A stretch of DNA of 64,000 nucleotides. It comes from Candidatus Nomurabacteria bacterium (GTDB taxonomy: Bacteria; Patescibacteriota; Minisyncoccia; Phycocordibacterales; UBA9973). The stretch covers positions 176,974 to 240,973 of the forward strand of contig JAPLXP010000003.1 of assembly GCA_026396015.1 (NCBI GenBank). Reading direction: 5' to 3'. The notes under the pieces were generated by a model. That model saw only the letters and a program-made list of their open reading frames with translations, did no database searches and was not told the origin of the DNA. A program made the position numbers and the translations under genes. Shown here one piece after another: positions 11,448 to 58,209 of this stretch (positions are counted from its first letter, which is position 1; each line of letters starts with the position of its first letter).

Positions 11448-11521
11448 GTAACTAGTTGCGAGTTTCTAATGACTAGAGTCTAGAAATTTCTAGAACCTAG
11501 AACCTAGAAACTATGCCCTAA
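11448..11521. repeat. CTAG-rich hairpin repeat, copy A (ssb leader)
   Basis: tctagaaatttctaga perfect palindrome plus ctagaacctagaacctagaaa. Shares ctagaacctag / ccctaa motifs with copies B, C and D. Confidence 0.6.
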
Positions 11522-11526
11522 TTTAT

Positions 11527-11989: not shown

Positions 11990-12062
11990 ATTAGTTTCTA
12001 GTTTCTAGTTTCTAGTGATAAATAAAATTTCCTAGAACCTAGTCCCTAGAACCTAGTCCCTA
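11990..12062. repeat. CTAG-rich hairpin repeat, copy B (rpsR leader)
   Basis: (tagtttc)x3 ... (ctagaacctagtcc)x2 ... ccctaa. 18-nt identity with the 16S insert (ctagaacctagtccctag). Confidence 0.6.
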
Positions 12063-12067
12063 ATTTT

Positions 12068-21053: not shown

Positions 21054-21497
21054 TTATTTTGTCTTCTTTAAAACTTCTTTCTCTTCGTCAGAAAGCTCAT
21101 AATCTGATTTACCATCTTTGATTGGTTTTGCGAATATACTCATACGATCACGAGCATAAAGGCTAGACATTATCACACCGTCTCCCTCATCATTTATAAA
21201 TGAGATTGCGAACGATTGATTGCTGCCGTGGTCAGGGAATGGATTGAATCGTATTGTCTCTACACCGCGGATAGTCTTCTTCATCTTTTCATCTAGGTGT
21301 TCGAGGTGCTTGTTTATCTCTCTCTGGGTGATCTCTAGATTCTCTGTGTGTTTTCCGAGTGTGTACATCACATCCTCGAGGTCTTTTGCTTTTGTTCCCA
21401 TAAATAACCTCTTTAATCTAATATGCAAGTACGTAATCCATCCGAGGAGGATGACAATAAAAAATGCAAGTATATAGATAAGGATAGTAATACTCAT
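21054..21497 (-). CDS. DUF4446-like membrane protein
   Basis: Start trimmed to MSITILIYILAFFIVILLGW (TM). C-terminal GDGVIMSSLYARDR-type motif. Confidence 0.45.
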   Translation of the reverse strand: MSITILIYILAFFIVILLGWITYLHIRLKRLFMGTKAKDLEDVMYTLGKHTENLEITQREINKHLEHLDEKMKKTIRGVETIRFNPFPDHGSNQSFAISFINDEGDGVIMSSLYARDRMSIFAKPIKDGKSDYELSDEEKEVLKKTK

Positions 21498-21601
21498 AGA
21501 TGCTTTGCAGTATACAACAAATAATGATTTTTTACAATGAGAACTTCCTCCCCTGCCAAGGGGAGGACTGAGGTGGGGTTTTGTGCTATAGTGTATGCAT
21601 A

Positions 21602-22945
21602 ATGTTTCGAAAGAGGAAAATCTATCTAGATTATGCATCTATGACACCTGTAGATAAAAAGGTGGTAAATCTCGTACACGAGGTGAGTAAAAAGGCTACC
21701 GACAATCCTAATGCCATCCACTCTGGTGGTGTTTTTGCTCGTAGTATTGTAGAAGATGCACGCAAATCGGTGGCAAAGTCTATCAATGCCCAGAGTGATG
21801 AGATATTCTTTTTAGGTTCAGGAACCGAGTCTGATGCATTAGCGATTTTAGGAGTAGTCAGAAATTTAAATAAAAAAGATTTCCTTCCTCATATCGTCAC
21901 TACAAATATAGAGCACAGTGCAGTACTTGAAAATTGTCGCTTACTTGAAGAACGCAGCGAAGCAGAAGTCACATATGTGAATGTAGAGGAGAATGGAATA
22001 GTAGATCCAAAAAAAATCCGTGAGGCGATAAAGGGGAACACTGTCCTCGTATCTGTGATGTATGCCAACAATGAGATAGGTACAATACAGCCTATTCGTG
22101 AAATTGCAAAAGAAATCAGACATTATAAGAAACACAACGGGAATATGCACGAATTATTCGCGCTTTACCCGCAAGCGGGCTCCGACGCGACTCATAATTC
22201 GTGCATATTCCCGTTGCTACATACCGATGCCGCACAAGCTATGAATTATCTAGACACTGACAACGTAGATAGACTAGGTGTAGATATGATGTCTTTTAAT
22301 AGTACAAAGATTTACGGACCCAAAGGTGTAGCTGTGCTCTATAAAAAAAGAGGGATAGAGTTATCGCCACTCTATGCTGGCGGTGGTCAGGAAGGTGGAC
22401 TACGCTCTGGCACAGAGAATGTGGCTGCGATAGCAGGCATGGCGTTAGCATTAAAAAATACAAACAGAATTAAAGATATAGAATATTCTCGTCTGACAAA
22501 ATTGCGCGATTATGCTATCGGTGAGATTCTCCGACTTTCTGAAAAATCAGGATACAAAATAATTTTAAATGGTGATATCGAGAATAGATTGCCGAATAAT
22601 ATAAATATCACAGTAGAAGGTATTTCTAGTGAACTCCTTGTGATAGAGCTCGATGCGAAAGGGGTAGCAGTATCGGAGCGCTCTGCATGTAGTGCAGATA
22701 GCGATGATGGCTCACATGTGATACGAGCCATCCGAAATGTTGATGAAAAAAATCTTCAAAATTCTTTAAAAATTTCGCCCGCTTTACCCGCGAGCGGGCT
22801 CCGACACGGATCAAAATTTTCAAATAATTTTTCCGATTTAGATTCCGTACGCATTACCCTCGGCAGAGAGACAAAAAAGTCTGATTTAGACTATCTAATT
22901 TCAACTCTTGAAAATATTTTAAATAAATATAAAAGTTGGAAATAA
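21602..22945 (+). CDS. cysteine desulfurase (class V aminotransferase, IscS/NifS-like) carrying two in-frame insertions
   Basis: IYLDYASMTPV N-terminus, PLP-lysine motif SFNSTKIYGPKG, active-site loop SERSACSAD. Start moved to MFRKRK. Confidence 0.85.
   Translation: MFRKRKIYLDYASMTPVDKKVVNLVHEVSKKATDNPNAIHSGGVFARSIVEDARKSVAKSINAQSDEIFFLGSGTESDALAILGVVRNLNKKDFLPHIVTTNIEHSAVLENCRLLEERSEAEVTYVNVEENGIVDPKKIREAIKGNTVLVSVMYANNEIGTIQPIREIAKEIRHYKKHNGNMHELFALYPQAGSDATHNSCIFPLLHTDAAQAMNYLDTDNVDRLGVDMMSFNSTKIYGPKGVAVLYKKRGIELSPLYAGGGQEGGLRSGTENVAAIAGMALALKNTNRIKDIEYSRLTKLRDYAIGEILRLSEKSGYKIILNGDIENRLPNNINITVEGISSELLVIELDAKGVAVSERSACSADSDDGSHVIRAIRNVDEKNLQNSLKISPALPASGLRHGSKFSNNFSDLDSVRITLGRETKKSDLDYLISTLENILNKYKSWK
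22141..22210. repeat. intragenic GC-rich palindromic element, copy 1
   Basis: 19-bp inverted repeat gaatatgcacgaattattc / gaataattcgtgcatattc flanking a GC-rich core cgctttacccgcaagcgggctccgac; lies within the CDS in frame. Confidence 0.6.
22772..22815. repeat. intragenic GC-rich palindromic element, copy 2
   Basis: Core cgctttacccgcgagcgggctccgac (1 mismatch to copy 1) flanked by aaaattt/aaaatttt; in frame near the C-terminus of the same CDS. Confidence 0.55.
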
Positions 22946-22973
22946 GCTTGACCGCTATGTTATACTGTATAGT

Positions 22974-23537
22974 ATGGATATTAAAGATTTAAACAAAACA
23001 CAGCTTATATTACTCACATTACTCATTACGTTTGTAGTGTCTATTGCTACTGGTATCGTGACTGTATCTTTGATGCAAAAAATGCCAACCAATGCCACAG
23101 CGACTATCAACAATGTGATTCAGAGAACTATCGAGAAAGTTACTACTTCTGCTCCTGCACCTACTACTCAAACTGGAAATAGTAATATCAATTTATCTGA
23201 TAATGCTGTATTGGTACCGATCTATAATAAAGATTTTGTCCAAGTTGATACTAAAAATGTTCCAGCTGGTGTAGTAGTAGATCCGATGAAGCCTACTACA
23301 GAAGGTGTTATCATTTCTGATTCAGGACTCATCCTTGTAGATTCTGCAAATTTGGATAAAGAAGAAAATATTTATAAAGTTGTTCTTGGTAAAGAATTAT
23401 TTGATACTCAGATTATAAAGAGATTTTCAAATGGATTTGTAATAATGCAAATTAAATCAAAAACAAAAGTAATAGATACTACAGCTGACACAAAAAAAAT
23501 AGATCAAAATCCAGTAGATAATTCAGTAAAACAATAG
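22974..23537 (+). CDS. hypothetical membrane-anchored protein
   Basis: N-terminal TM (LILLTLLITFVVSIATGIVTV) then Thr/Asn-rich extracytoplasmic region. Confidence 0.35.
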   Translation: MDIKDLNKTQLILLTLLITFVVSIATGIVTVSLMQKMPTNATATINNVIQRTIEKVTTSAPAPTTQTGNSNINLSDNAVLVPIYNKDFVQVDTKNVPAGVVVDPMKPTTEGVIISDSGLILVDSANLDKEENIYKVVLGKELFDTQIIKRFSNGFVIMQIKSKTKVIDTTADTKKIDQNPVDNSVKQ

Positions 23538-23628: not shown

Positions 23629-26328
23629 ATGCCCCCATTCAATCATTTTACAACAAAAGCAAAAGAGGCGATTCGTAAAGCTCATGAGCTAGCTATCGAG
23701 AGAGGTCAGAATCATGTGAATGGTCTGCATCTACTCACTGCACTGCTCGTGCAAGAGGATTCACTTATCATATCTATCTTGGAAAAGATGGATATTGATA
23801 CATTGCTACTCATCGATACAGTAGCAGAGATTATCGAGAATCCAGAAGCTCGCAATACTGTGTCTCCGTCTTATCAAATATATCTGACTCCAGATCTCGC
23901 ATCAGCAATAGAGAATTCTAGTAAGGTCGCTGTCACACTCAAGGATGAATTCGTATCTACAGAGCATCTATTTATATCACTATTGGAAACTGCAGGTGAG
24001 GCCCGCGAGATGCTAGGCCGATTCAAAATAGAAAAGGATAAAGTTATAAATATCTTAGAGATGTTCCGCAAGGAAAATATCACAGATACTGGATCTTCAA
24101 AAAAGCCAAAGCTTCTCACAAAATTCACTCGCAGCCTGACCCGGCTCGCACGTGAGGATAAACTCGATCCAGTCATCGGTCGTGATACAGAGATCATGCG
24201 CCTTATGCAGATATTATCTCGTCGTACAAAAAACAATCCGATACTAATAGGTGAAGCTGGTACTGGCAAGACTGCAGTAGCAGAGGCTCTAGCACTACGT
24301 ATCGCCAAGGGTGATGTACCCGAGAGTCTTCGCGATAAAGAAGTCGTATCTCTTGATCTAGGATTGCTACTCGCTGGTACAAAATATCGCGGTGAATTCG
24401 AAGAGCGCCTACGCGGAATCATGAAGGAGATAGAAAAGACTGATGGGAAAATAATTTTATTTATCGATGAGATTCATACTATCGTCGGGGCAGGTAGCTC
24501 CGAGGGGTCACTGGATGCTTCGAATATGCTAAAGCCTGCACTGGCTCGTGGAGAGCTGCATGCGATCGGTGCGACGACTTTGAAGGAGTATCAAAAGCAT
24601 ATCGAAAAAGATCCAGCACTCGCACGTAGATTCCAGCCGATCTTTATCGACGAGCCATCTACTGATGATGCGATAGCAATACTTCGAGGACTAAAAGAAA
24701 AATATGAATTATTCCATGGTGTACGTATTACAGACGAGGCGATCATCGCTGCTGTGAATTTCTCTACACGATATATCACAGGTAGATATCTACCAGACAA
24801 AGCTGTCGACCTTATCGACGAGGCTTCTTCTGCATTGAAGATATCACTGGAGAACAAGCCACAAGCCTTAGAAGAATCACATCGCAAGATTATGCGTCTC
24901 GAGATTGAAAAGGAAGCTCTCTCAAAAGATATCGGATTGGAATCACATACTACAAAAGAAGACAAGGACGCAAAAGCTCGTATCAAGGAGATCGATGGCG
25001 AGATAGCGAACCTAAAAGAAAAAACAAAAGAGCTAGAACTGAAATGGAAAAATGAAAAGGATACAGTCGTAGAGATTCGTGCAATCAAAAAAGAATTGGA
25101 GACTTTGCGTTTTGAAGCGGACAATGCCGAGATGCGTGGAGACTTAGCTCGTGTAGCAGAGATCCGATACGGACAGATTCCTGATTTCCAAAAAGATCTA
25201 GATGCTAAATTAGCAAGATTAAAGAAGCTTCAAAAATCTCGCCGAATATTGAAGGAGGAGATCACGACAGAAGATATAGCAGAAGTTGTATCACGATGGA
25301 CAGGTGTGCCACTATCTAGGATGCTCGAGGAGGAGCGTAGCAAGCTTGCCCATATGGAGGACCAGATAAAGAAGAGAGTCGTCGGTCAAGATGAAGCAAT
25401 CAAAAAGATTTCAGATGTCGTTCGTCGCAGTCGTGCTGGAATATCTGATCCAAACAAGCCAATCGGTTCATTTATCTTCCTAGGACCTACTGGTGTAGGT
25501 AAGACTGAGCTGACAAAGGCATTAGCGCAATTTATGTTCGACGATGAGAAGTCACTCATACGTGTGGACATGTCTGAATACATGGAGCGTCACAGTGTAT
25601 CCAAGCTCGTAGGTTCACCGCCAGGATATGTAGGCTACGATGAATCAGGACAGCTCACAGAGCAGGTCCGCCATCGTCCATACTCTGTAGTACTCTTTGA
25701 TGAGATTGAAAAAGCTCATCCTGAGGTATTCAATATCTTGCTCCAGGTCCTAGACGAGGGCAAGCTCACTGATTCCAAGGGACGCACAGTGAATTTCAAA
25801 AATACAATCATCATCATGACTTCAAATATTGGTTCTCATTTGATTGAAAAGATGGAGAGTATCGGATTCAATACGAATACAGTAAAAGAGGATTATCAAA
25901 ATACAAAAGACAAAGTACTCGCAAGTTTGAAGGATCACTTCCGTCCTGAATTCCTAAATCGTCTCGATGATATTGTAGTCTTTGATGTATTGTCTCAAGA
26001 AGTCATCCGCAATATTGTATCTATCAAGATCGATGTCATCCGTGTACGACTACTGGCAAAGGGGATAGATCTCGAGATATCAGACGATGCGATGGATTAT
26101 CTATCACGCGAGGGATACAATCCGCACTATGGTGCACGACCGCTCGGCCGCCTGATACAGAACAAGATTCTCAACCATGTCGCATCATTCATTATTGAAA
26201 AAGGTGTGAACAAGGGTGACACAGTCTATGTGACACTCCGAGATTCAGAGCTAGTGATCGATATGAAAAAGAAAAAGATTAAATCCAATCTAAAAGTCTC
26301 AAAGCCAAGCCCGTATACAGCGAAATAA
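23629..26328 (+). CDS. clpB: ATP-dependent chaperone ClpB
   Basis: Clp N domain, two AAA+ modules (GEAGTGKT; GPTGVGKT), coiled-coil middle domain, 899 aa. Confidence 0.85.
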
Positions 26329-26330
26329 AT

Positions 26331-26364
26331 AAAAACCCACGAATTGATTCGTGGGTTTTTATTT
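26331..26364 (+). terminator. rho-independent terminator (aacccacgaattgattcgtgggtt + T-run)
   Basis: Perfect hairpin after the clpB stop. Confidence 0.7.
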
Positions 26365-27062: not shown

Positions 27063-28097
27063 ATGTCACAACTATACAGCAATTCAATATTTTGGGTGGA
27101 TGTTGATAAGATAAAACCCAACCCATTTCAGCCTCGTCGTGAATTCGAAGAGGCAAGATTAAAGGACTTAGCAGACTCTATCCGCCAATATGGCATACTC
27201 CAGCCGCTCACAGTATCCCGTGTGGAGGTAGTAAAAGAGGATGGTGGTATTGCTGTAGAATACGAGCTTATCGCTGGTGAGCGCCGTCTCCGAGCTTCAA
27301 AGCTAGCAGGTGTCGCCCAGGTACCTGTGGTCATCCGTATTGGAGATGACAACATGGCAAAGCTTGAATTGGCTATCATTGAAAATCTTCAACGTGAAGA
27401 TCTAAACGCAGTAGAGCGTGCACGAGCATTCTTCCGATTAGTAGAAGAGTTTAAATTCACTCATGGTCAGGTTGGTACAAAGGTAGGCAAGAGTCGTGAA
27501 TATGTGTCCAACACTCTGCGCCTCCTATCATTGCCACAAGAAGTCCTAGACGCATTATCTGCACGCAGAATTACCGAAGGTCATACTAGACCTATCATGA
27601 TGCTCGCAGACAAGCCTGAGGAGCAGATGGTTCTGTTCAAAGAGATAATATTTAAAAAGATGAATGTGCGTGATGCAGAAAAATATGCACGCCGTATAGC
27701 TGTAGATCGTGTACGTAACAAGGAATATATTCTTGATCCAGAATTACTAGAGATGGAGGTACACCTAGCTGAGGCATTAGGTACACGTGTCCATGTAGAA
27801 AAGAGTCAGAATGGCGGACAGATCACAATTGATTTCTTTACAAATGAAGATTTGAGAAATATTCTTGAGGTGATGAAAGGAGTAGAGTCAAAAGGTAAGA
27901 GTCCTACTGAGATGCTGGATCGTCACATCGAATCTGTCGGCGGAATAGAGACTTTGATACCAAGCGTCAACAATCCTGCTGTTCTTGCTGTCAGTGATAT
28001 AGAGGCAGAGCAGATCGAGATGCTAGACGATAGAGATGAAAAAGAAAAGCAGGTTGTAGAAGAAGAATTGTATAACATAAAAAATTTCTCACTATAA
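27063..28097 (+). CDS. ParB/Spo0J-like nuclease-fold DNA-binding protein (orphan, no parA adjacent)
   Basis: ParB N-terminal box II GERRLRAS and HTH region; 344 aa with extended acidic C-terminus. Confidence 0.7.
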   Translation: MSQLYSNSIFWVDVDKIKPNPFQPRREFEEARLKDLADSIRQYGILQPLTVSRVEVVKEDGGIAVEYELIAGERRLRASKLAGVAQVPVVIRIGDDNMAKLELAIIENLQREDLNAVERARAFFRLVEEFKFTHGQVGTKVGKSREYVSNTLRLLSLPQEVLDALSARRITEGHTRPIMMLADKPEEQMVLFKEIIFKKMNVRDAEKYARRIAVDRVRNKEYILDPELLEMEVHLAEALGTRVHVEKSQNGGQITIDFFTNEDLRNILEVMKGVESKGKSPTEMLDRHIESVGGIETLIPSVNNPAVLAVSDIEAEQIEMLDDRDEKEKQVVEEELYNIKNFSL

Positions 28098-28103
28098 AAA
28101 TAA

Positions 28104-28150
28104 AAATCCCCGCCACAACTTTGTAAATGTTGGCGGGGATTTTTATTTTT
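28104..28150. terminator. bidirectional terminator (atccccgccaaca...tgttggcggggat)
   Basis: GC-rich inverted repeat with A/T runs between convergent parB-like and rel. Confidence 0.65.
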
Positions 28151-29624
28151 AGAATTTTGCAAACGATCTGAATTTTGATAGGAGACTATTTTGTCTTAAA
28201 TATGTATTGATATGTTTCTTTGCCATACTAGTCTTGGCATATTCTAGCCATTTTGACGATGGATTAGTATTTGGATTCACAGTGATCTCTACTATATCGC
28301 GACTTGCGAGCTTTGTACCTAGACTAGCATTTTTATTATTTATCAGTCCATTCTGCGCATGATTGCCAATGTCTGAGTGAATAGCATATGCAAAGTCTAT
28401 GACAGTAGCACCCTCTGGTAGGTCTACTACATCACCTCTGGGTGTGAACACGAATATTCTATCTTTGAACAGATCCATCTGCAGGTGCTGAAGGAATTTT
28501 TCTGGATCATCTACTGTCTTGTGTAGCTCTTGGAGTTGGGATAGCCATTCAAATTTCCTATCCTTACTACCTTTGATTGTAAAATTCTTGCCACCTGTCT
28601 CTTTGTAAATAAAGTGTGCAGCGATACCATATACAGCTTCGGCATGCATCTCTGGTGTTCGTATCTGTACCTCTACTACTCCACCAGTCCCAGTGAATAT
28701 TGTAGTATGTAGTGATCTGTATCCATTTGGCTTTGGTGTAGCTATATAGTCCTTGATGCGTCCTGGAAGAGGATTCCATATACTATGAACTATTCCTAGT
28801 GTTCGGTAGCAGTCCTCGATATTGTCCACGATCACACGTAGTGCGACTACATCGTAAATCTTTTCAATATCTAGATTATATTTTACTAGTTTATTCCAAA
28901 GACTGTATTTATACTTTTCACGACGACTGATTTCTACTATATGAATTTTTTGATTTTTTAATTCGTCTGTCAGTTTATCTGTAACAAGATCCAAATCTTT
29001 TGTATTGTCGAATTTTGTATTAGCGAGAATTTCCTGAAGCTTTTTGTATTCCTCTGGGTATGCATAGGGGAATGCAGCATCTTCGAGGTTACCCTTTAGA
29101 TTGTTCATACCTATGCGGTCCGCAAGTCGTGCGTGAATCTCGATAGTCTCCAATGCGATTCTCTTTCTCTTATCTATCCGTACGTGTTCGAGAGTCTGTA
29201 CATTGTGCAGTCTGTCTGCTAATTTGATGATTAATATTCGCAAGTCATCCGCCATCGCCATAAAGAATTTGCGTAGGGATTCTACGTGTCGTGCGTGACC
29301 TTGGTATTTTACTTTTCCAAGCTTGGTCACACCATTTACGAGCTTTACTATCTCTTCACCAAATTCTTCGACTAACTTTTCCTCCGGAGTATCTGTGTCT
29401 TCTAGTACGTCATGCAGGAATCCTGCAGCTATAGTCTTGGCATCCATACCAAAATGAGCCAGATTCTTTGCAGTAGCGAATACGTGAATAAAGTATGGCT
29501 CACCACTTTTTCGGAGTTGGTCTTTATGGGCCTCATGTGCTACATCATAGGCTTTTTGGATTAAAGCCTTATCTTTTGCATCCAATTTAGATGTCTGATT
29601 GTAGATTTCATTGATGTCTAACAT
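28149..29624 (-). CDS. bifunctional (p)ppGpp synthetase/hydrolase, RelA/SpoT family (HD-SYNTH-TGS, no ACT)
   Basis: HD motif (FLHDVLEDT), synthetase motifs (GRIKDY...GYRSLHTT), TGS domain at C-terminus. Confidence 0.8.
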   Translation of the reverse strand: MLDINEIYNQTSKLDAKDKALIQKAYDVAHEAHKDQLRKSGEPYFIHVFATAKNLAHFGMDAKTIAAGFLHDVLEDTDTPEEKLVEEFGEEIVKLVNGVTKLGKVKYQGHARHVESLRKFFMAMADDLRILIIKLADRLHNVQTLEHVRIDKRKRIALETIEIHARLADRIGMNNLKGNLEDAAFPYAYPEEYKKLQEILANTKFDNTKDLDLVTDKLTDELKNQKIHIVEISRREKYKYSLWNKLVKYNLDIEKIYDVVALRVIVDNIEDCYRTLGIVHSIWNPLPGRIKDYIATPKPNGYRSLHTTIFTGTGGVVEVQIRTPEMHAEAVYGIAAHFIYKETGGKNFTIKGSKDRKFEWLSQLQELHKTVDDPEKFLQHLQMDLFKDRIFVFTPRGDVVDLPEGATVIDFAYAIHSDIGNHAQNGLINNKNASLGTKLASRDIVEITVNPNTNPSSKWLEYAKTSMAKKHINTYLRQNSLLSKFRSFAKF

Positions 29625-31926: not shown

Positions 31927-31990
31927 TAGTTCCTAGGTTTTAGTAAATTTACTAGAAACTAGAACCTAGTTACTAGTACCTAACCTAGAG
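31927..31990. repeat. CTAG-rich hairpin repeat, copy C
   Basis: cctaggttt TAGTAAATTTACTA gaaactagaacctagttactagtacctaacctaga; palindromic core; between topA start and dprA end. Confidence 0.55.
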
Positions 31991-32929: not shown

Positions 32930-33027
32930 GAAATAAGCTCTTCTCTAAACACACGCATATTTTTCTGTTGAAAAATTGCTCTGCTCGGCTACCCGCCTGC
33001 GCAAGTTGTTTTTCGAAGACTTATTTT
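32930..33027. mobile_element. MITE-like dispersed repeat, copy i (short variant)
   Basis: TIRs gaaataagctcttctc / gaagacttatttt; shares gagcagag...aatttttcaacagaaaaata / ttgcgcagg modules with copies ii-iv. Confidence 0.6.
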
Positions 33028-35221: not shown

Positions 35222-35356
35222 AAAATAAGCTCTTCTCGAAAAGCACGAATATTTTTCTGGTGAAAAATTTCTCTGCTCGTCGCTCAAGAAAATAACATTC
35301 GTAAACTCATTTATTTTCTAAGCTCCTGCGCAAGACTTTTCTCGAAGACTTATTTT
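35222..35356. mobile_element. MITE-like dispersed repeat, copy ii
   Basis: Reverse complement is ~90% identical to copy iii; TIRs aaaataagctcttctcg / cgaagacttatttt. Confidence 0.65.
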
Positions 35357-35378: not shown

Positions 35379-36509
35379 ATGAACAATTTCTGGGAAAAAT
35401 TAAATAAACCATTCTTTGTATTGGCTCCGATGGCAGATGTCACTGATCCAGCTTTTCGTCGCATCATAGCAAAGTATGGCAAGCCCGATGTGACTTGGAC
35501 AGAATTCGTATCTGCTGATGGCCTTGCTCATCCTGTCGCTCGTGAGAAATTAATTCGCGATTTAGCATATACGGAAACAGAGCGTCCAATAGTGGCTCAA
35601 CTATTTTCTAGTCATCCAGAACAAATGCGTACTGCAGCTCGTATCGTGGCGGAGCTCGGCTATGATGGTATCGACATCAATATGGGATGCCCTGATAGAT
35701 CTATAGAAAAGCAGGGTGCAGGTGCTGCGATGATGAAGACTCCAGATATAGCAGGTGTAATAATTCAAGCAGCCAAGGATGGGATACGAGATGCAGGCAA
35801 GGATATTCCATTGTCTGTAAAAACTCGCGTAGGATACAACCAAGTTCAGATAGATGAGTGGATACCATTCCTACTTTCTCAAGATATCGCCACTCTGACT
35901 GTGCATGCGAGAACTCGAAAAGAATTGTCCTCTGTGCCTGCAAACTGGTCATATGTAAAAAAAGTTGTAGAGATACGAAATAAAATGGGAGTAAAAACCA
36001 GGATCATTGGCAATGGTGATGTGCACAATGTGGCTCATGGTAGGCAGCTTGCTCTTGAAACGGGCTGCGATGGCATCATGATCGGCCGCGCGATATTCGG
36101 CAATCCGTGGATGTTCGCTAATACTGTGGATGATACGAGCAAAAAAAATGTATCCGAAAAAAGTCTTGCGCAGCGCGACTGGCGCGAGCAGAGCAAATTT
36201 TTAGCAAAAAATTATGTGTGCTTTTTGAGGAAATATTTTTTGGGCGAGTCTAAAAAAGATAAAGATAGATATTGGCTAGAGAATAAGATAGATATACCAG
36301 TATCTGAGAGACTACGAGTACTAGTAGAGCATACAAAACTATACGAAGAACTACTGGGTGACATTAAAAGTTTCTCAATAATGAAAAAGCACTACAAGGC
36401 ATACTGCAATGGATTCACCGGTGCAAAGGAGCTGCGTATGCAATTGATGGATTCTAATAGTGCAGAGGAGGTAGAAAATATAATAGATACTTTTTTAAAA
36501 ACACTTTAA
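35379..36509 (+). CDS. tRNA-dihydrouridine synthase
   Basis: Dus TIM-barrel N-terminus FVLAPMADVTDPAFRRI and catalytic Cys region GIDINMGCP. Confidence 0.85.
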   Translation: MNNFWEKLNKPFFVLAPMADVTDPAFRRIIAKYGKPDVTWTEFVSADGLAHPVAREKLIRDLAYTETERPIVAQLFSSHPEQMRTAARIVAELGYDGIDINMGCPDRSIEKQGAGAAMMKTPDIAGVIIQAAKDGIRDAGKDIPLSVKTRVGYNQVQIDEWIPFLLSQDIATLTVHARTRKELSSVPANWSYVKKVVEIRNKMGVKTRIIGNGDVHNVAHGRQLALETGCDGIMIGRAIFGNPWMFANTVDDTSKKNVSEKSLAQRDWREQSKFLAKNYVCFLRKYFLGESKKDKDRYWLENKIDIPVSERLRVLVEHTKLYEELLGDIKSFSIMKKHYKAYCNGFTGAKELRMQLMDSNSAEEVENIIDTFLKTL

Positions 36510-39003: not shown

Positions 39004-39011
39004 AAGAATAA

Positions 39012-39052
39012 ATAAAAAGAGCCGCGACATTTGTCGCGGCTCTTTTTATTTA
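39012..39052. terminator. bidirectional terminator (aaagagccgcgacatttgtcgcggctcttt)
   Basis: Perfect 13-bp stem with flanking A/T runs between convergent genes. Confidence 0.75.
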
Positions 39053-40105
39053 TTCTTCGTCTTGTGGTTTCTCTATTGTGAGTGTCTCTACTTTTAAAGC
39101 TTCACCTGTGATACGCATCACGTCCTTGTCTACTTTTCGGAATTCATGATTAGACTTGTTGAAGTGGTTCACTGTGGTCTCTAATGCCGCACCCATCTTC
39201 TTGTGATACTCTTCGTACTTTTGTAGGTGTGTACCTAGTTCACCGACGCGCTTGATGATATCTTTTGCACCTTCCTCGATCTGCATAGCTTTTAGGCCCT
39301 GTAGGACTGTCTGTAGATAAGCTAGGAATGAAGTCGGCGATACGATGATGACTTTGTACTTACTAGCAGCTCTCTGTATTAGATTCTCTGTATCTTCACC
39401 GACGAGTGCACCGATTTTATTTACGAGTAAATCATAATAGATTGCCTCGTGAGGGATGAACATAAATGCGAATTCCATCGTACCATTCTCGGGTTGGATA
39501 TATTTTGAAGTTTCAGTAATACGATTCTTCAAATCATTTACAAAGACTTTTTCTAATCTGTCTTTCTCAGCCTTGTCACTCGTTTCGCTTATTCTGTTGT
39601 AATTTTCAAGCGAGAATTTTGAATCAATCGGGATTATTTTATCTTTTACAAATACCGCTGCATCCACTATCGTGCCGTCTGGAAAAGGGAATTGCATCTG
39701 ATATGAACCCGGTGGCATGATATTTTTCAAGAGTGTCTCGAGATAATATTCACCCAATATTCCACGCTGCTTTGGATTCTTCAATATGTCTTGGAGGCTC
39801 TGGAGCTGATCTGTGAATCCTACTACCTGCTTGTTAGTCTCGTCTAGTCTTGTGATCTTTTCTGTGATGTCTGAGATAATTCTTGAAGTCTCTGAAGATT
39901 GGTATCGCATAGACTGAGTCATCTCTTTTTGACTCTCGGTCAATTTATTATCAATAGTCCGAGTGAGCTCATTCATCTGAGAGAGGAGTAGCTGTAGTCC
40001 TGTGTCATCCTTTTTCTCTTCAGGTTTTGTATTTTTCTTTAGCAAAAGAAAAGCGATAATAATGCCCAATATAATTCCCAAAATAATTGTAATAGCTGTT
40101 GTCAT
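39050..40105 (-). CDS. rmuC: DNA recombination protein RmuC
   Basis: N-terminal TM plus coiled coil, conserved IPIDSKFSLENY and EFAFMFIPHEAIYYDLL motifs of the RmuC family. Confidence 0.75.
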   Translation of the reverse strand: MTTAITIILGIILGIIIAFLLLKKNTKPEEKKDDTGLQLLLSQMNELTRTIDNKLTESQKEMTQSMRYQSSETSRIISDITEKITRLDETNKQVVGFTDQLQSLQDILKNPKQRGILGEYYLETLLKNIMPPGSYQMQFPFPDGTIVDAAVFVKDKIIPIDSKFSLENYNRISETSDKAEKDRLEKVFVNDLKNRITETSKYIQPENGTMEFAFMFIPHEAIYYDLLVNKIGALVGEDTENLIQRAASKYKVIIVSPTSFLAYLQTVLQGLKAMQIEEGAKDIIKRVGELGTHLQKYEEYHKKMGAALETTVNHFNKSNHEFRKVDKDVMRITGEALKVETLTIEKPQDEE

Positions 40106-45946: not shown

Positions 45947-46002
45947 GCATTTATTTTATCACAATATGCGCCATCAAAATAGCTTCCATTAAAGTGTAAT
46001 TA

Positions 46003-46135
46003 AAATAGTCCTTGAAAAAAGTCTTGCGCAGGAACTTAGAAAATAAATGAGTTTACGAGTATTATTTTCTTGAGTGACGAGCAGAGAAATTTTCTACCAA
46101 GAAAATATTCGTGCTTTTTGAGAGGAGCTATTTTA
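46003..46135. mobile_element. MITE-like dispersed repeat, copy iii
   Basis: Full-length copy with modules aagtcttgcgcaggaacttagaaaataaatgagtttacgag...gagcagagaaattttctaccaagaaaatattcgtgctttttgagaggagctatttt. Confidence 0.65.
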
Positions 46136-46190
46136 ATGGAACTCACAATCCTCATTTCACTTTGAGGCTCGTTTTTGCTATACTTTATTT

Positions 46191-49581: not shown

Positions 49582-49686
49582 TAGGAGGGAATCTCTCCTT
49601 ACAGGAGCCGTACATCTTTTCCATTCGCAAGCTCATACGGAAAATATTTTCGCTCCCTCCACACAAGCAAAGCAGTTTGCTTGCTA

Positions 49687-49736
49687 TGGGGCACATATTA
49701 AAAAAACCGCATAAAGCGGTTTTTTTAATATGTGCC
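49687..49736. terminator. perfect 25-bp-arm inverted repeat / bidirectional terminator that includes the 3' end of tRNA-Lys
   Basis: atggggcacatattaaaaaaaccgc ATAA gcggtttttttaatatgtgccccat; right arm overlaps the tRNA-Lys acceptor 3' strand. Confidence 0.7.
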
Positions 49737-49805
49737 CCATGGAGGGATCGAACCTCCGACCGTCTCCTTAAGAGGGAGCTGCTCTACCAGCTGAGCTAAC
49801 AGGGC
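49733..49805 (-). tRNA. tRNA-Lys (anticodon CTT)
   Basis: Acceptor gccctgt/atggggc (two GU pairs), D-arm gctc-agctggta-gagc, anticodon loop cuCUUaa, T-arm ggaggttcgatccctcc. One mismatch at the base of the anticodon stem. Confidence 0.7.
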
Positions 49806-49814
49806 ATAACGAAT

Positions 49815-50030
49815 TTAAAACATTAAACTAAACTATTTACCATGTATTCTGTTATTTACCAAAACAGCGTAACAAGGCTTATCTAAACTTAAAACATTAA
49901 ACTAAACTATTTACCATGTATTCTGTTATTTACCAAAACAGCGTAACAAGGCTTATCTAAACTTAAAACATTAAACTAAACTATTTACCATGTATTCTGT
50001 TATTTACCAAAACAGCTAACAGGGCGTAAA
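49815..50030. repeat. tandem direct repeat, 74-bp unit x ~3
   Basis: Unit ttaaaacattaaactaaactatttaccatgtattctgttatttaccaaaacagcgtaacaaggcttatctaaac at 49815, 49889, 49963. Last copy diverges to cagctaacagggc, which is identical to the tRNA-Lys 5' end. Confidence 0.8.
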
Positions 50031-50122
50031 AGTTAAAAAATATTTAACTCTGTCATTATTGCAGAAAAAGCTATTTTTGTAAATAGTGTTTGCTTTTCTT
50101 TGTAAAGGAGTATAATTAGTGT

Positions 50123-50625: not shown

Positions 50626-50881
50626 AGGGTTCACAGTCTGGTAAGTTATCCGGCTGTTTTAATTTCTTTGAAAAGTTAATAGGTTGGCTCAATCATCATT
50701 TCAATGATTGGGCAAAAAATGCAAATAATCAAAGCAAGCAAGTTAACCGTAAATCACTCGATAGTGATAGGTTAAGAAATGTCCGCATTATTCTTTCCGG
50801 AGTAATAGCGAGACAATAGTAAGTCAGTTTGGAAGAAATAAAATACTGTAAAGTATTCTTTATTTTGTTCCGTTCTATTTT

Positions 50882-52482
<1,601 letters not shown>

Positions 52483-52737
52483 ATTTGAAATTAATCGATG
52501 TATTCTATTTATAGATGCAAAGATCTTATTGAGTCGATATTGTATAGCTCAATTGACTATACAATTGCTGCGTACTACAGCATAGCGAAGTACTGACATC
52601 TGGGAAAGACCAGAATCAAAAAATACGAACGGAACAAAATAAAGAATATTTTCAAAACTTCTATTTGTTTGATTGATTAAAGCATTTATACTCTGTCTAT
52701 ATGACATGGTGCAACCTATTAATTCTAAATGAAACAA

Positions 52738-52772
52738 TAAAAAAAATCCCAACAAATGTTGGGATTTTTTTT
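52738..52772 (+). terminator. rho-independent terminator (atcccaacaaatgttgggat + T8)
   Basis: Follows the 16S 3' processing stem; no 23S follows. Confidence 0.75.
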
Positions 52773-52831
52773 ATTGTTGATTTATTTTAAAATGATATAA
52801 TTAAAACAATTATTTAATTATTATTTTATTC

Positions 52832-54481
52832 ATGAAAAAATTTTATTCAGCTTTATTGATTTTGCTTTTAGTTATTGTTCTTGTTCCCACTAAATCTTTT
52901 GCTAGTTCTACTTGGGTTGATGTGTCTTCAGCAGGATCTGGTGCTTGGCAGGCTGTGGCGTCTTCATCTAATGGTACAAAATTAGTCGCAATTGTTTATG
53001 GCGGTGGAATATATACCTCTTCAGATAGTGGTGTGACTTGGGCGCCTCAATCTTCTGCTGGAAATAGAAATTGGAAGAACGTAGCATCTTCATCAGATGG
53101 TACAAAATTGGTCGCCACTGCTTATGGTGGTGATATTTATACCTCTACAAATAGTGGTGTAACTTGGGTAGATCAAACTACATCTGGTGCTCGTAACTGG
53201 AATGGGTTAGCTGTGTCTTCTGATGGATCAAAAATTGTCGCTGCTGTTTATGGTGGTGATATTTATACTTCTACTAATGGTGGTGTTGACTGGACTGATA
53301 GAGTTTCTGCTGGAGTGTCAAATTGGAATACTATAGCTGCCTCTTCTGATGGTGTTAATATTGTTGCTGGTATTTTTGGTGGTTATTTATCTACTTCAAA
53401 TGATGGAGGTGCTACTTGGTCTATACAAAATTCTTCTGGTTCAAGAAATTGGTTTTCATTAGCTTCTTCATCTGATGGTACAAAATTAGCTGCAGTTGAA
53501 TATGGTGGTGGAATTTATACCTCTACTGATAGTGGTGTAACTTGGGTAAATAAAACTTCCGCTGGTAATCATAATTGGAAAAGTATTGCTATTTCGGATG
53601 ATTTATCAAGATTAATTGCTGTTGCATATAGTGTGGATTATGTTTATCTTTCTATAGATGGTGGTTTAACATGGATACGTCAAGACTCTGCAGGTGCTAG
53701 TTACTGGCAATATGTAACAGCATCTTCTGATTTTACTAATGTGGTTTCTCTTGTTTATGGTGGTGATATTTATCATGGATTATTTACTTTTCTTCCTGTT
53801 GTGTCAACTGGATCTTCCTCAAGTACAACATTAGATTCTACTGTTCTATCTGGATCAATAAATTTTTCTGGAGGTGAGAATAATACTGTCAGAGGTATAA
53901 ATTATGGTCTTACTTCTAGTTATGGTTCTGTTGTTTCTGAAATTGGCTCATACGGAGCAGGGACTTTTAACTTGAATGTTACAGGTCTTACTTGTGCTAC
54001 TACATACCACTATTCAGCTTTTTCTACAAATGGTGTAGGTACTAGTACGGGTTCTGATTCTACTTTTGATACATTACCTTGCCCAGTTCATCATTCTGGT
54101 GGTCATCCACCAATAATTACTTCTTCTGGAGGAGGTGGTGCACCAGTTGTGACAGATATTATAGTTCCTACAGTTGTGATCCCTCCTGCGCCAGTTGAAA
54201 ATAAGATTATTTTAAATAATGTTGTTACTAGTTCTTCTTCATCATCAAATAAACTCTCAAAGCATTTAAATATAAATATGAAGGATCCAGAGGTTAAAAT
54301 ACTACAACAATTTTTAATCGATCAAAATAAAGGGTCAAAATCTAAATTGATTTACTTGAGTAATTCTTTCGGACCAAAAACAAAATCTGCACTTGTTGAA
54401 TGGCAAAAATCTGCAGGATTGGAATCTGACGGAGTATTGGGACCCGAGACTAGATCAAAGATAAACGATATTTTAAAATAA
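52832..54481 (+). CDS. secreted BNR/Asp-box beta-propeller protein with FN3-like module and C-terminal peptidoglycan-binding domain
   Basis: Signal peptide. ~7 repeats SAG..NW...A.SSDGTKLVA..YGG.IYTS..SGVTW (Asp-box S.D.G.TW). C-terminal PG_binding_1-like LVEWQKSAGLESDGVLGPET. Confidence 0.6.
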   Translation: MKKFYSALLILLLVIVLVPTKSFASSTWVDVSSAGSGAWQAVASSSNGTKLVAIVYGGGIYTSSDSGVTWAPQSSAGNRNWKNVASSSDGTKLVATAYGGDIYTSTNSGVTWVDQTTSGARNWNGLAVSSDGSKIVAAVYGGDIYTSTNGGVDWTDRVSAGVSNWNTIAASSDGVNIVAGIFGGYLSTSNDGGATWSIQNSSGSRNWFSLASSSDGTKLAAVEYGGGIYTSTDSGVTWVNKTSAGNHNWKSIAISDDLSRLIAVAYSVDYVYLSIDGGLTWIRQDSAGASYWQYVTASSDFTNVVSLVYGGDIYHGLFTFLPVVSTGSSSSTTLDSTVLSGSINFSGGENNTVRGINYGLTSSYGSVVSEIGSYGAGTFNLNVTGLTCATTYHYSAFSTNGVGTSTGSDSTFDTLPCPVHHSGGHPPIITSSGGGGAPVVTDIIVPTVVIPPAPVENKIILNNVVTSSSSSSNKLSKHLNINMKDPEVKILQQFLIDQNKGSKSKLIYLSNSFGPKTKSALVEWQKSAGLESDGVLGPETRSKINDILK

Positions 54482-57999: not shown

Positions 58000-58209
58000 G
58001 AAATAAAATAATTATTGAAAAAGTCTTGCGCAGGAGATTAGAAAATAAATGAGTTTACGAATATTATTTTCTTGATTGAGGGGATTAAATAAAAACTGCT
58101 TTTTATTTAATCCGGTTCGCGAAGCGAAATTGCCGATGCGAAGCAGGCAATAGGGAGAGATATTTTTCAACAGAAAAATATTCGTGCTTTTTGAAATAAG
58201 TTATTTTAT
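58000..58209. mobile_element. MITE-like dispersed repeat, copy iv (with ~75-nt nested insertion)
   Basis: Same modules as copy iii, interrupted at cttgattgag | gagagatat by gggattaaataaaaactgctttttatttaatccggttcgcgaagcgaaattgccgatgcgaagcaggcaatagg. Confidence 0.6.

Follow-up and report, generated by a model that had tools for sequence, protein, structure and literature searches.

In-frame palindromic repeats are known from Rickettsia and from a few bacteria rich in repetitive extragenic palindromes (REPs). The Rickettsia palindromic elements (RPEs) are in-frame palindromic repeats in housekeeping genes (reviewed in PMC10969869 and PMC3733652), and intragenic REPs have been described in uvrA, other excision-repair genes, DNA ligase and tRNA synthetases, including two inserts in one open reading frame (ORF) (Di Nocera et al., 2013; PMC3733652). 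Here, a GC-rich hairpin repeat is described that interrupts a cysteine desulfurase gene twice without breaking its frame, in a metagenome-assembled genome (MAG) of an ultra-small bacterium, Candidatus Nomurabacteria. The stretch analyzed, referred to as the window, comprises 64 kb of this MAG, and relatives were read as 8-kb pieces. It is very likely that the two features are a dispersed, inserted repeat tolerated in frame; on balance, they appear to be copies of one low-copy, dispersed family of GC-rich hairpin repeats of Paceibacteria/Nomurabacteria, which extends in-frame palindromic repeats to the Candidate Phyla Radiation (CPR).

The likeness to RPEs is considerable: a palindromic repeat in a reduced, AT-rich genome, lying in frame in a variety of unrelated housekeeping genes whose protein fold can accommodate it at these positions, encoding a conserved peptide, and present in some and absent from other related genomes. 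It differs in its host (CPR/Paceibacteria), in the length of the conserved part (~44-60 nt vs. ~100-150 bp in RPEs), and in that only the apical part is conserved here, the basal stem being copy-specific and, where this could be resolved, made from the host flank. With REPs it shares a short stem-loop found both between genes (terminator-like) and inside them, a strikingly parallel list of host genes, and two inserts in one ORF. It differs from REPs in its long host-derived outer stems, which are not a described REP feature, and in that no REP-associated tyrosine transposase (RAYT) was seen near the ten copies inspected.

Two repeat copies in one gene

The 26-nt core CGCTTTACCCGCRAGCGGGCTCCGAC, which can be written with one variable base as CGCTTTACCCGC(A/G)AGCGGGCTCCGAC, was found exactly twice in the window, on the + strand and within the cysteine desulfurase coding sequence (CDS) both times (Table 1). 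Allowing up to 3 mismatches returned the same two matches only, with 0 expected from shuffled sequences, and neither nhmmer nor a covariance model of the core family detected an additional or diverged copy in the 64 kb. The gene product matches P0001 (named 'cysteine desulfurase family protein', from a Candidatus Nomurabacteria MAG) at 100% identity, and the gene order IF-2 / DUF4446 / cysteine desulfurase / 187-aa ORF / ClpB is kept in 7 orthologous loci. Both copies preserve the reading frame, and neither the pyridoxal phosphate (PLP) lysine K236 nor the catalytic cysteine C363 varies in the family alignment. A preliminary description, made from the sequence of this DNA alone, had reported both the two near-identical GC-rich cores in frame in this gene and the integrity of the PLP lysine and active-site cysteine, and was correct in each respect. 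What the two copies share is a unit of DNA and not of peptide, since their reading frames differ.

Table 1. Coordinates of features at the cysteine desulfurase locus (positions in the 64-kb window)
Feature	Coordinates	Strand	Description and basis
GC-rich insertion between the divergent DUF4446 and cysteine desulfurase genes	21539..21581 (about)	+	43 nt; hairpin CCTCCCCTGCCAAGGGGAGG (21547-21566), then ACTGAGGTGGGG
Cysteine desulfurase CDS	21602..22945	+	Class V aminotransferase (PF00266), host of both inserts; ORF and translation
Left arm of 23-bp stem	22135..22157	+	CAACGGGAATATGCACGAATTAT; native coding sequence (…NGN[M]HE) extended by 4 nt of insert
Insert 1	22154..22207	+	54 nt, 18 aa LFALYPQAGSDATHNSCI; codon alignment with empty orthologues L043, L044, L046-L050, L062
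Core copy 1	22161..22186	+	CGCTTTACCCGCAAGCGGGCTCCGAC; apical CCCG/CGGG mini-hairpin, conserved unpaired flanks; frame gives LYPQAGSD
Right arm of 23-bp stem	22194..22216	+	ATAATTCGTGCATATTCCCGTTG; 22194-22207 new, 22208-22216 TTC CCG TTG = native FPL codons
Insert 2 block	22736..22840	+	105 nt in place of 12 nt (GAAAATAATAAT) of empty orthologues; net +93 nt, 31 aa
Imperfect AT-rich hairpin around core copy 2	22758..22831	+	dG -19.7 kcal/mol, z = -3.7; ~21/26 arm positions complementary (hand alignment)
Core copy 2	22780..22805	+	CGCTTTACCCGCGAGCGGGCTCCGAC; frame is the family's major one (ALPASGLRHG)
Peptide segments at the inserts			LFALYPQAGSDATH and ALPASGLRHG

Comparison of orthologues, which the preliminary description had proposed, revealed presence/absence polymorphism of both inserts. 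Among eight syntenic orthologues, insert 1 was found only in P0001 and, in decayed form, in P0007 (L045), and was missing from the closer P0002 and P0003 (backbone nucleotide identity to the window gene 83-84%); insert 2 was present in P0001, P0002 and P0004 and absent from P0003 and P0005-P0008. Of the metagenome relatives, L050 is empty at both sites and L062 at site 1 (site 2 was not covered). A metagenome scan for closer relatives gave a best identity of <=76%, and the exact pre-insertion allele of the window genome was not recovered. The preliminary description had taken the inserts for a small palindromic repeat that entered a tolerant gene, a reading upheld by the close syntenic orthologues that lack one or both inserts and by the dispersal of the core in relatives; of the two observations it had named as contrary, homologous inserts in distant lineages, and a core found nowhere else in the genome together with conserved codon usage, neither was made.

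Origin of the stems

Insert 1 consists of a 44-nt module (TTATTCGCG, the core and GCGACTCATAA) and of a further 10 nt, TTCGTGCATA, in which the native left flank is repeated as its reverse complement. Its boundary is ambiguous by 2 nt (TT), and the inner arms of the module are the same as in the L009 copy. The stem around copy 1 is a perfect 23 bp (folding dG -49.5 kcal/mol, z = -9.8). In its empty form site 1 reads CAC AAC GGG AAT ACG CAC GAA|TTC CCA CTG; in the filled form the left part is kept as coding sequence (NGN[M]HE), and is followed by the module, TTCGTGCATA and TTC CCG TTG. This spelling of the FPL codons is the exact complement of CAACGGGAA, the empty orthologues having TTY CCN YTN. 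Microhomology is present at the junction (CGAATT/TT), and the empty site is itself a natural quasi-palindrome, GGnAAT…ATTyCC, with 6-8/10 pairs in most orthologues.

These alignments also revise the first measurements of the insert. The inverted repeat earlier assigned to copy 1 exists, but as a perfect 23 bp where 19 bp had been given, and the second of the strings quoted for it is not literally there; the label MITE-like (miniature inverted-repeat transposable element) fails, the outer stems varying between copies and copy 1 having a native left arm and an inverted copy as its right arm. The insert length of ~44 nt corresponds to the shared module inside insert 1, and not to the inserts, which amount to 54 nt and net +93 nt.

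Filled and empty forms resolved the native arm at two sites, site 1 here and site 0 in another clade. The empty site 0 of L076 reads GCT|GGC TCG GAA TCC AAA CAA TTT AAG C. In the filled L025 and L077, the sequence left of the module is the exact reverse complement (19-20 bp) of the locus' own right flank, so that the native arm lies on opposite sides at the two sites, left of the core at site 1 and right at site 0. The right flanks of L025 and L077 differ at ~5 positions, each of which is mirrored in the partner arm. The site 0 junction carries GGCT microhomology, with native GGCTC where other copies have the element's GACTC. As judged from these alignments, the basal stem at both sites with empty orthologues consists of the native coding flank and its exact inverted copy, and at site 0 the mirror arm is seen to track each lineage's own native arm (L025 and L077 pair).

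Among copies inherited vertically (PheT, IleRS, MnmA and UvrA groups), arm sequences have diverged, with most differences mirrored in the partner arm and a few mismatches left (L002, L028). At one LeuRS site, the core lies in opposite orientations in L027 and L032, both of which have 28-aa inserts.

A variant with an extra nested hairpin in the core (CTTTACCC-TTCCCCGAAGCGGGG-CGGGCTCCGAC) was observed twice in one cysteine desulfurase gene (L078, 566-667 and 902-1003, at sites 0 and 1). Its long arms are nearly identical, and a whole hairpin was therefore copied between sites ~340 nt apart. Other copies occurring as close pairs are those of the window (620 nt apart), L006 (1.5 kb) and L023 (2 kb); together with L078, they suggest local spread.

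Unrelated hairpin inserts are also found at site 1 in other lineages (L052, L053/L057, L056, L061, L069), which marks it as a hotspot. In these six loci, the loop between ..IRHYKK and FHTDA carries in-frame hairpin inserts without the core studied here, with stems of up to ~30 bp (L069, dG -62.6 kcal/mol), and such inserts therefore seem to be general in these bacteria. The distant homologue P0025 reads ..LCFPFFHTDSAG-FPLFHTDACQ.. at this site; the native FPLFHTDA is apparently duplicated directly beside its insert, a junction type unlike the inverted flank copies.

Anatomy of the hairpin

Every copy lies in a hairpin with 11-42 pairs enclosing the core. The apical part is invariant and comprises CTTTA, a 4-bp mini-hairpin (CCCG-NNNG-CGGG) and CTCCGAC, where CTTTA and CTCCGAC are unpaired. 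The inner arms are semi-conserved and define two subfamilies, ..AAAATTYNGCCG / ACGGAC..AATTTT.. and ..TCGCG(T) / (G)C(C)GACTC.., while the long basal stem has a different sequence in every copy.

Stem statistics were calculated on a model-based alignment of 54 family matches (A5). Pairing was observed in 88% of stem cells, vs. 60% in shuffles and 29-50% with slid partners, and 381 cells were altered on both sides vs. 109 expected. All 23 of 23 basal pairs covaried; the 4-bp apical helix never varied. As the outer stems differ from copy to copy and their basal pairs covary, they are not terminal inverted repeats of MITE type. Among non-Watson-Crick stem cells on the core's strand, 14-16 were G·T vs. 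47-61 A·C. The lack of G·U enrichment among mismatches gives no hint that wobble is tolerated in the sense RNA, and indicates nearly pure Watson-Crick (DNA-type) complementarity. The A·C excess on the core's strand is a G·T excess on the opposite strand, which strand-specific mutation bias or opposite-strand structure could cause.

Insert 2 in three lineages

Insert 2 is 95-98% identical among P0001, P0002 and P0004 (third positions 96-100%), whereas the rest of the gene is 74-84% identical among them (third positions of conserved codons 55-68%), and the high identity begins and ends at the insert boundaries. P0003 is without insert 2, yet is a sister of P0001 and P0002 in the backbone tree. 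Such identity where synonymous sites are near saturation indicates recent lateral spread to the same site, and a recent lateral arrival in three diverged lineages would be the most economical reading of these alignments. Transformation with mismatch correction that spares the loop, or a site-specific enzyme, are possibilities for the route, and the near-identical inserts point to a still-active path of site-specific spread between species. Orthologue alignments did not resolve the native arm of insert 2, the site being AT-rich and of low complexity.

A dispersed family in housekeeping genes

For the cross-genome census, an exact scan for the 24-nt core was made with one genome per species. It returned 43 copies in 42 loci of ~25 MAGs, with 1-6 exact copies per MAG; the MAGs are labelled Nomurabacteria, Paceibacterota and Parcubacteria, some being auto-labelled Saccharibacteria. 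No core copy was found on viral contigs. With the two window copies included, ~33/45 copies lie in frame within ORFs >700 nt that are open for hundreds of bases on both sides. Hosts, named by their sequences, are housekeeping genes: PheT, IleRS and LeuRS; UvrA, UvrB, UvrC, the NAD-ligase LigA and a MutY-like glycosylase; PurH, MnmA, BipA, the CCA enzyme, a radical-SAM enzyme and XerC; and a third site of another cysteine desulfurase. Essential enzymes of already minimal genomes carry these repeats, which explain some of the puzzling differences in length among CPR housekeeping proteins and ought to be masked before alignment, phylogenetic analysis or structure prediction.

Five of the core's six frames are open. 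Counted by independent site, ~19 use the main sense frame (..KNSAALPASGLRHGQNFS..), 4-5 the second (LYPQAGSD), 0 the third, and two are antisense; most intragenic copies encode the peptide ..AALPASGLRHG... No intragenic copy contains a stop codon, even in its AT-rich arms, or departs from a length divisible by 3 nt, and decayed copies with indels are still in frame (P0007 at site 1; P0122, P0123, P0131, P0133 and P0136 at site 0). The other copies lie outside genes, some of them in terminator-like hairpins between convergent genes. In a replication-strand (GC-skew) test, which is confounded by gene orientation, the intergenic copies divided 4 vs. 5. No transposase-like ORF was seen by inspection within 1.5 kb of nine intergenic copies and one contig-end copy; no Pfam run was made on these ORFs.

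Position of the inserts in the protein

In the best PDB alignment, residues 4-173 / 205-378 / 414-441 of the query match 8-175 / 182-350 / 358-385 of the chain, so that the alignment breaks exactly at both inserts, which take the place of connectors of 6-8 residues in solved homologues. The AlphaFold2 model was only moderately confident (mean predicted local distance difference test (pLDDT) 67.8). In it, residues 181-199 form coil with pLDDT <50 between helix 165-178 and strand 205-209, and insert 2 falls within low-confidence coil 344-413 (pLDDT <50) that precedes strand 416-419. The surface loops suggested for the inserts in the preliminary description are in keeping with both results, and in cysteine desulfurase, the sole gene examined in this way, the surface position is compatible with the fold. 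Copies survive only where the frame is kept and where they land in surface loops. Taken with the open frames, this makes it likely that the inserts are translated as extra loop peptides rather than removed.

An intein had been discounted from the start on account of size; the 18 and 31 aa of the two inserts are likewise too short for one and have no splicing motifs. Intein, intron and bypass identities were rejected, the intragenic copies being stop-free and a multiple of 3 nt.

Comparison with known elements

Searches for a described family gave the following. A permissive Rfam scan of 21400-23000 returned sub-threshold chance matches only (best mir-4536, 29.9 bits vs. a gathering score of 76) and no intron or ribozyme match. 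At gathering thresholds, the only Rfam hits in the whole window were the 16S rRNA and 5 tRNAs. A literature search found no report of such in-frame palindromic repeats in CPR/Patescibacteria.

Of the properties that define REPs, a short (20-40 bp) imperfect palindrome that is repeated was observed, with the stem-loop core and inner arms in 45/45 copies. The high copy number and mostly extragenic location of REPs were not, most exact copies being intragenic and few in each MAG. The sequence tag is split by subfamily: on the reverse strand, members of the ..CCGACGC.. subfamily (window copy 1, L009, L025, L034, L036, L041) have CGTCGGAGCCCGC, and the main subfamily, to which window copy 2 belongs, has TGTCGG. 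The in-frame location in functional ORFs that characterizes RPEs was found in ~33 copies, most of which encode the conserved peptide. Membership among RPE-1 to RPE-10 is very unlikely nonetheless, as the host is a CPR bacterium; the likeness noted is one of behaviour. The repeat can at present be assigned to no known family, given a CGTC tag in one subfamily only, the low copy number, the lack of a RAYT near the copies inspected and, for MITEs, the lack of shared terminal repeats.

MITEs resemble the repeat in being small, non-coding and hairpin-forming with short flanking direct repeats; they differ in that the inverted repeat here is partly host sequence and no parent insertion sequence is known. 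MITE identity was rejected, since the copies have no terminal inverted repeats in common and one arm is native at two sites. The direct repeats flanking the inserts (2-nt TT at site 1, 4-nt GGCT at site 0) may be target-site duplications or can equally be read as microhomology.

Optional G+C-rich palindromic clusters are found in yeast mitochondrial DNA, including in-frame clusters of var1. They too are GC-rich hairpins of ~30-50 nt in an AT-rich genome, optional between strains, in frame, and spreading to empty alleles. They differ in being organellar, eukaryotic and unrelated in sequence, and in that their spread was shown genetically in crosses, where here it is inferred from identity. The novelty of the present repeat lies in its lineage, in the family as such, and in an architecture that mirrors the flank and is maintained over the long term.

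Mechanism and alternative explanations

The best explanation, held with moderate confidence, is a selfish hairpin repeat of REP/RPE-like kind that is translated and tolerated in loops. The element would encode no enzyme. As its copying mechanism, template switching is put forward tentatively: a nascent strand would jump onto an existing copy at a few bases of microhomology, copy the module, snap back on the module's inner stem, copy its own just-made flank, and return to the original template, re-annealing where the site is quasi-palindromic. The same process could later homogenise the arms and flip the core.

Documented effects of template switching include the formation and upkeep of perfect hairpins, the homogenisation of inverted-repeat arms, the inversion of spacers, and seemingly compensatory changes made in one step (PMC8794818, PMC8604942, PMC7202029). 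The present family shows each of the marks of quasi-palindrome template-switch mutagenesis, namely perfect stems, 'compensatory' changes that arise together, homogenised arms and inverted spacers, and this match supports the proposal. The described process differs, however, in being a mutational one that acts on existing inverted repeats. To our knowledge, template switching has not been known as a means for a specific repeat family to multiply and colonise new sites. If the proposal is right, native arms and mirror stems followed over evolutionary time would be an unusually clean natural record of template switching making protein sequence.

Several observations weigh against this explanation. 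Only two sites have empty orthologues that tell which arm is native. Whole hairpins can move with their arms (L078), and insert 2 is nearly identical with sharp ends in three lineages; the former is not predicted by flank-mirroring alone, nor the latter by template switching within a genome. Across genomes whose housekeeping genes are 20-30% different, 24 nt including unpaired bases are identical, for which a purely polymerase-driven process is insufficient; this strict conservation of unpaired core bases suggests a trans-acting protein that recognises the core, and none was found. The strong frame and orientation bias could reflect something besides peptide tolerance. Copy number and the absence of a transposase rest on 64 kb and 8-kb pieces, and hence neither is established. 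More speculatively, the family may be a selfish, protein-less hairpin that hijacks template switching, its stem built from the host flank and kept perfect by arm-to-arm copying, with core flipping and 'homing' to the same site in diverged species, or else the visible half of a so far undescribed hairpin-specific recombination system in CPR bacteria; we regard this as possible but rather unlikely.

Comparably low probability attaches to a REP/MITE-type non-autonomous transposon moved in trans by a dedicated enzyme, such as a RAYT/IS200-like tyrosine HUH transposase or another hairpin-specific nuclease, that would recognise the apical part, the stems arising later through palindrome correction. 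The 24-nt core is invariant in all copies down to its unpaired bases and asymmetric bulge (CTC or A), as protein recognition sites typically are, and the subfamily of window copy 1 reads CGTC-GGAGCCCGC.. on the opposite strand, like CGTC-tagged REPs. The precedent of intragenic REPs in uvrA, ligase and tRNA-synthetase genes (PMC3733652), the short direct repeats TT and GGCT, the sharp-ended insert 2 at one site in three lineages and the joint movement of arms and core in the two L078 copies also favour a transposon. However, the main subfamily has TGTC and no CGTC tag, the copies share no terminal inverted repeats and were absent from viral contigs, the ORFs inspected beside the nine intergenic copies and one contig-end copy were not transposase-like, and 1-6 exact copies per MAG are very few against the hundreds known for REPs.

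It is improbable that the repeat is a functional host element under selection, acting at the RNA level (processing, stability, ribosome pausing) or the DNA level (protein binding, uptake signal), with stems shaped by compensatory evolution. Such an element would account for the strict core, for stems that stay complementary in vertically inherited copies (PheT, IleRS, MnmA, UvrA; site 0), for the terminator-like hairpins followed by T runs at the intergenic L015, L021 and L022, and for hosts enriched in DNA repair and translation, which recalls the bias of uptake sequences and intragenic REPs. Against it, the same essential genes have a decayed copy or none in many lineages, and such decay argues against host function; the hairpin of insert 2 is imperfect although its sequence is conserved; coding copies have no T runs 3'; and G·U is not enriched on the sense strand, nor was an Rfam family matched. 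Selection on RNA structure is disfavoured, G·U being rarer than A·C on the sense strand, and a DNA-uptake signal was rejected because the copy number is far too low.

Removal or skipping of the inserts, as hairpin mini-introns or by a bypass like that of T4 gene 60 or mitochondrial 'byps', is very improbable. Short GC-rich hairpins in AT-rich coding sequence with stems this stable (dG ~-50 kcal/mol) would hinder ribosomes, which gives the idea some appeal; but every copy in a long gene is in frame and stop-free through its AT-rich arms, which would be pointless if it were excised, decayed copies with indels stay in frame, and the peptide is conserved in one preferred frame. Stop-free inserts in multiples of three appear constrained to be translatable, which argues against removal at the RNA level and ribosomal bypass alike. 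Ordinary lineage-specific loops, formed by point mutation and small indels with coincidental or convergent core similarity, are scarcely credible even though both sites are naturally length-variable among cysteine desulfurases, given a 26-nt identity expected 0 times by chance, the same 24-mer in 42 loci, unrelated genes and three reading frames, empty close orthologues, and window copies read in different frames.

Other repeats in the window

The GC-rich hairpin that the preliminary description had noted in the divergent promoter upstream is real and lies within the 43-nt insertion of Table 1. This insertion belongs to a repeat family other than that of the core and has no Rfam match. It is absent from L043, L044, L045, L047, L048 and L049, with a decayed homologue at the same spot in L046 (P0004 locus), and may offer alternative pairings of CCTCCCC with GGGGAGG or with GAGGTGGGG.

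The 16S rRNA gene (50880-52485) is ~70 nt longer than the Rfam model. Within it, at 52013-52127, lies a hairpin of ~115 nt that is composed of CTAGAACCTAG-like motifs and whose 55-nt arms are 75% complementary. Clusters of these motifs recur at 11461-11524, 12023-12066 and 31927-31986, so that a further family of hairpin repeats is represented here within an rRNA gene. Five tandem copies with a 126-nt period (52956-53663; 66-75% identical), immediately downstream of the 16S gene region, are probably part of a repeat-containing protein gene.

A repeat of ~130-200 nt, AAAAAGTCTTGCGCAGG…TATTATTTTCTTGA…AGAGAAATTTTCTACCAAGAAAATATTCGTGCTTTTTGAG…, occurs at 35223-35355 (-), 46002-46134 and 58001-58208 (81-96% identical), with partial copies at 32931-32987 and 36141-36242. 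At 46136 it stops directly at an ATG, and so resembles a promoter/leader region shared between loci or an intergenic element that is mobile. Three tandem 74-nt units (49812-50033; 99% and 81% identical) adjoin the tRNA at 49733-49805 (-), and the tRNA-end-like sequence TACCAGCTGAGCTAACAGGGC is found again at 49785 and 50005. Intergenic hairpins at 39004-39057, 49686-49740, 52733-52778, 28095-28151 and 26327-26364 have perfect arms of 18-26 nt that include A and T runs; they look like bidirectional terminators, and their perfection may reflect the arm-homogenising process proposed for the coding inserts.

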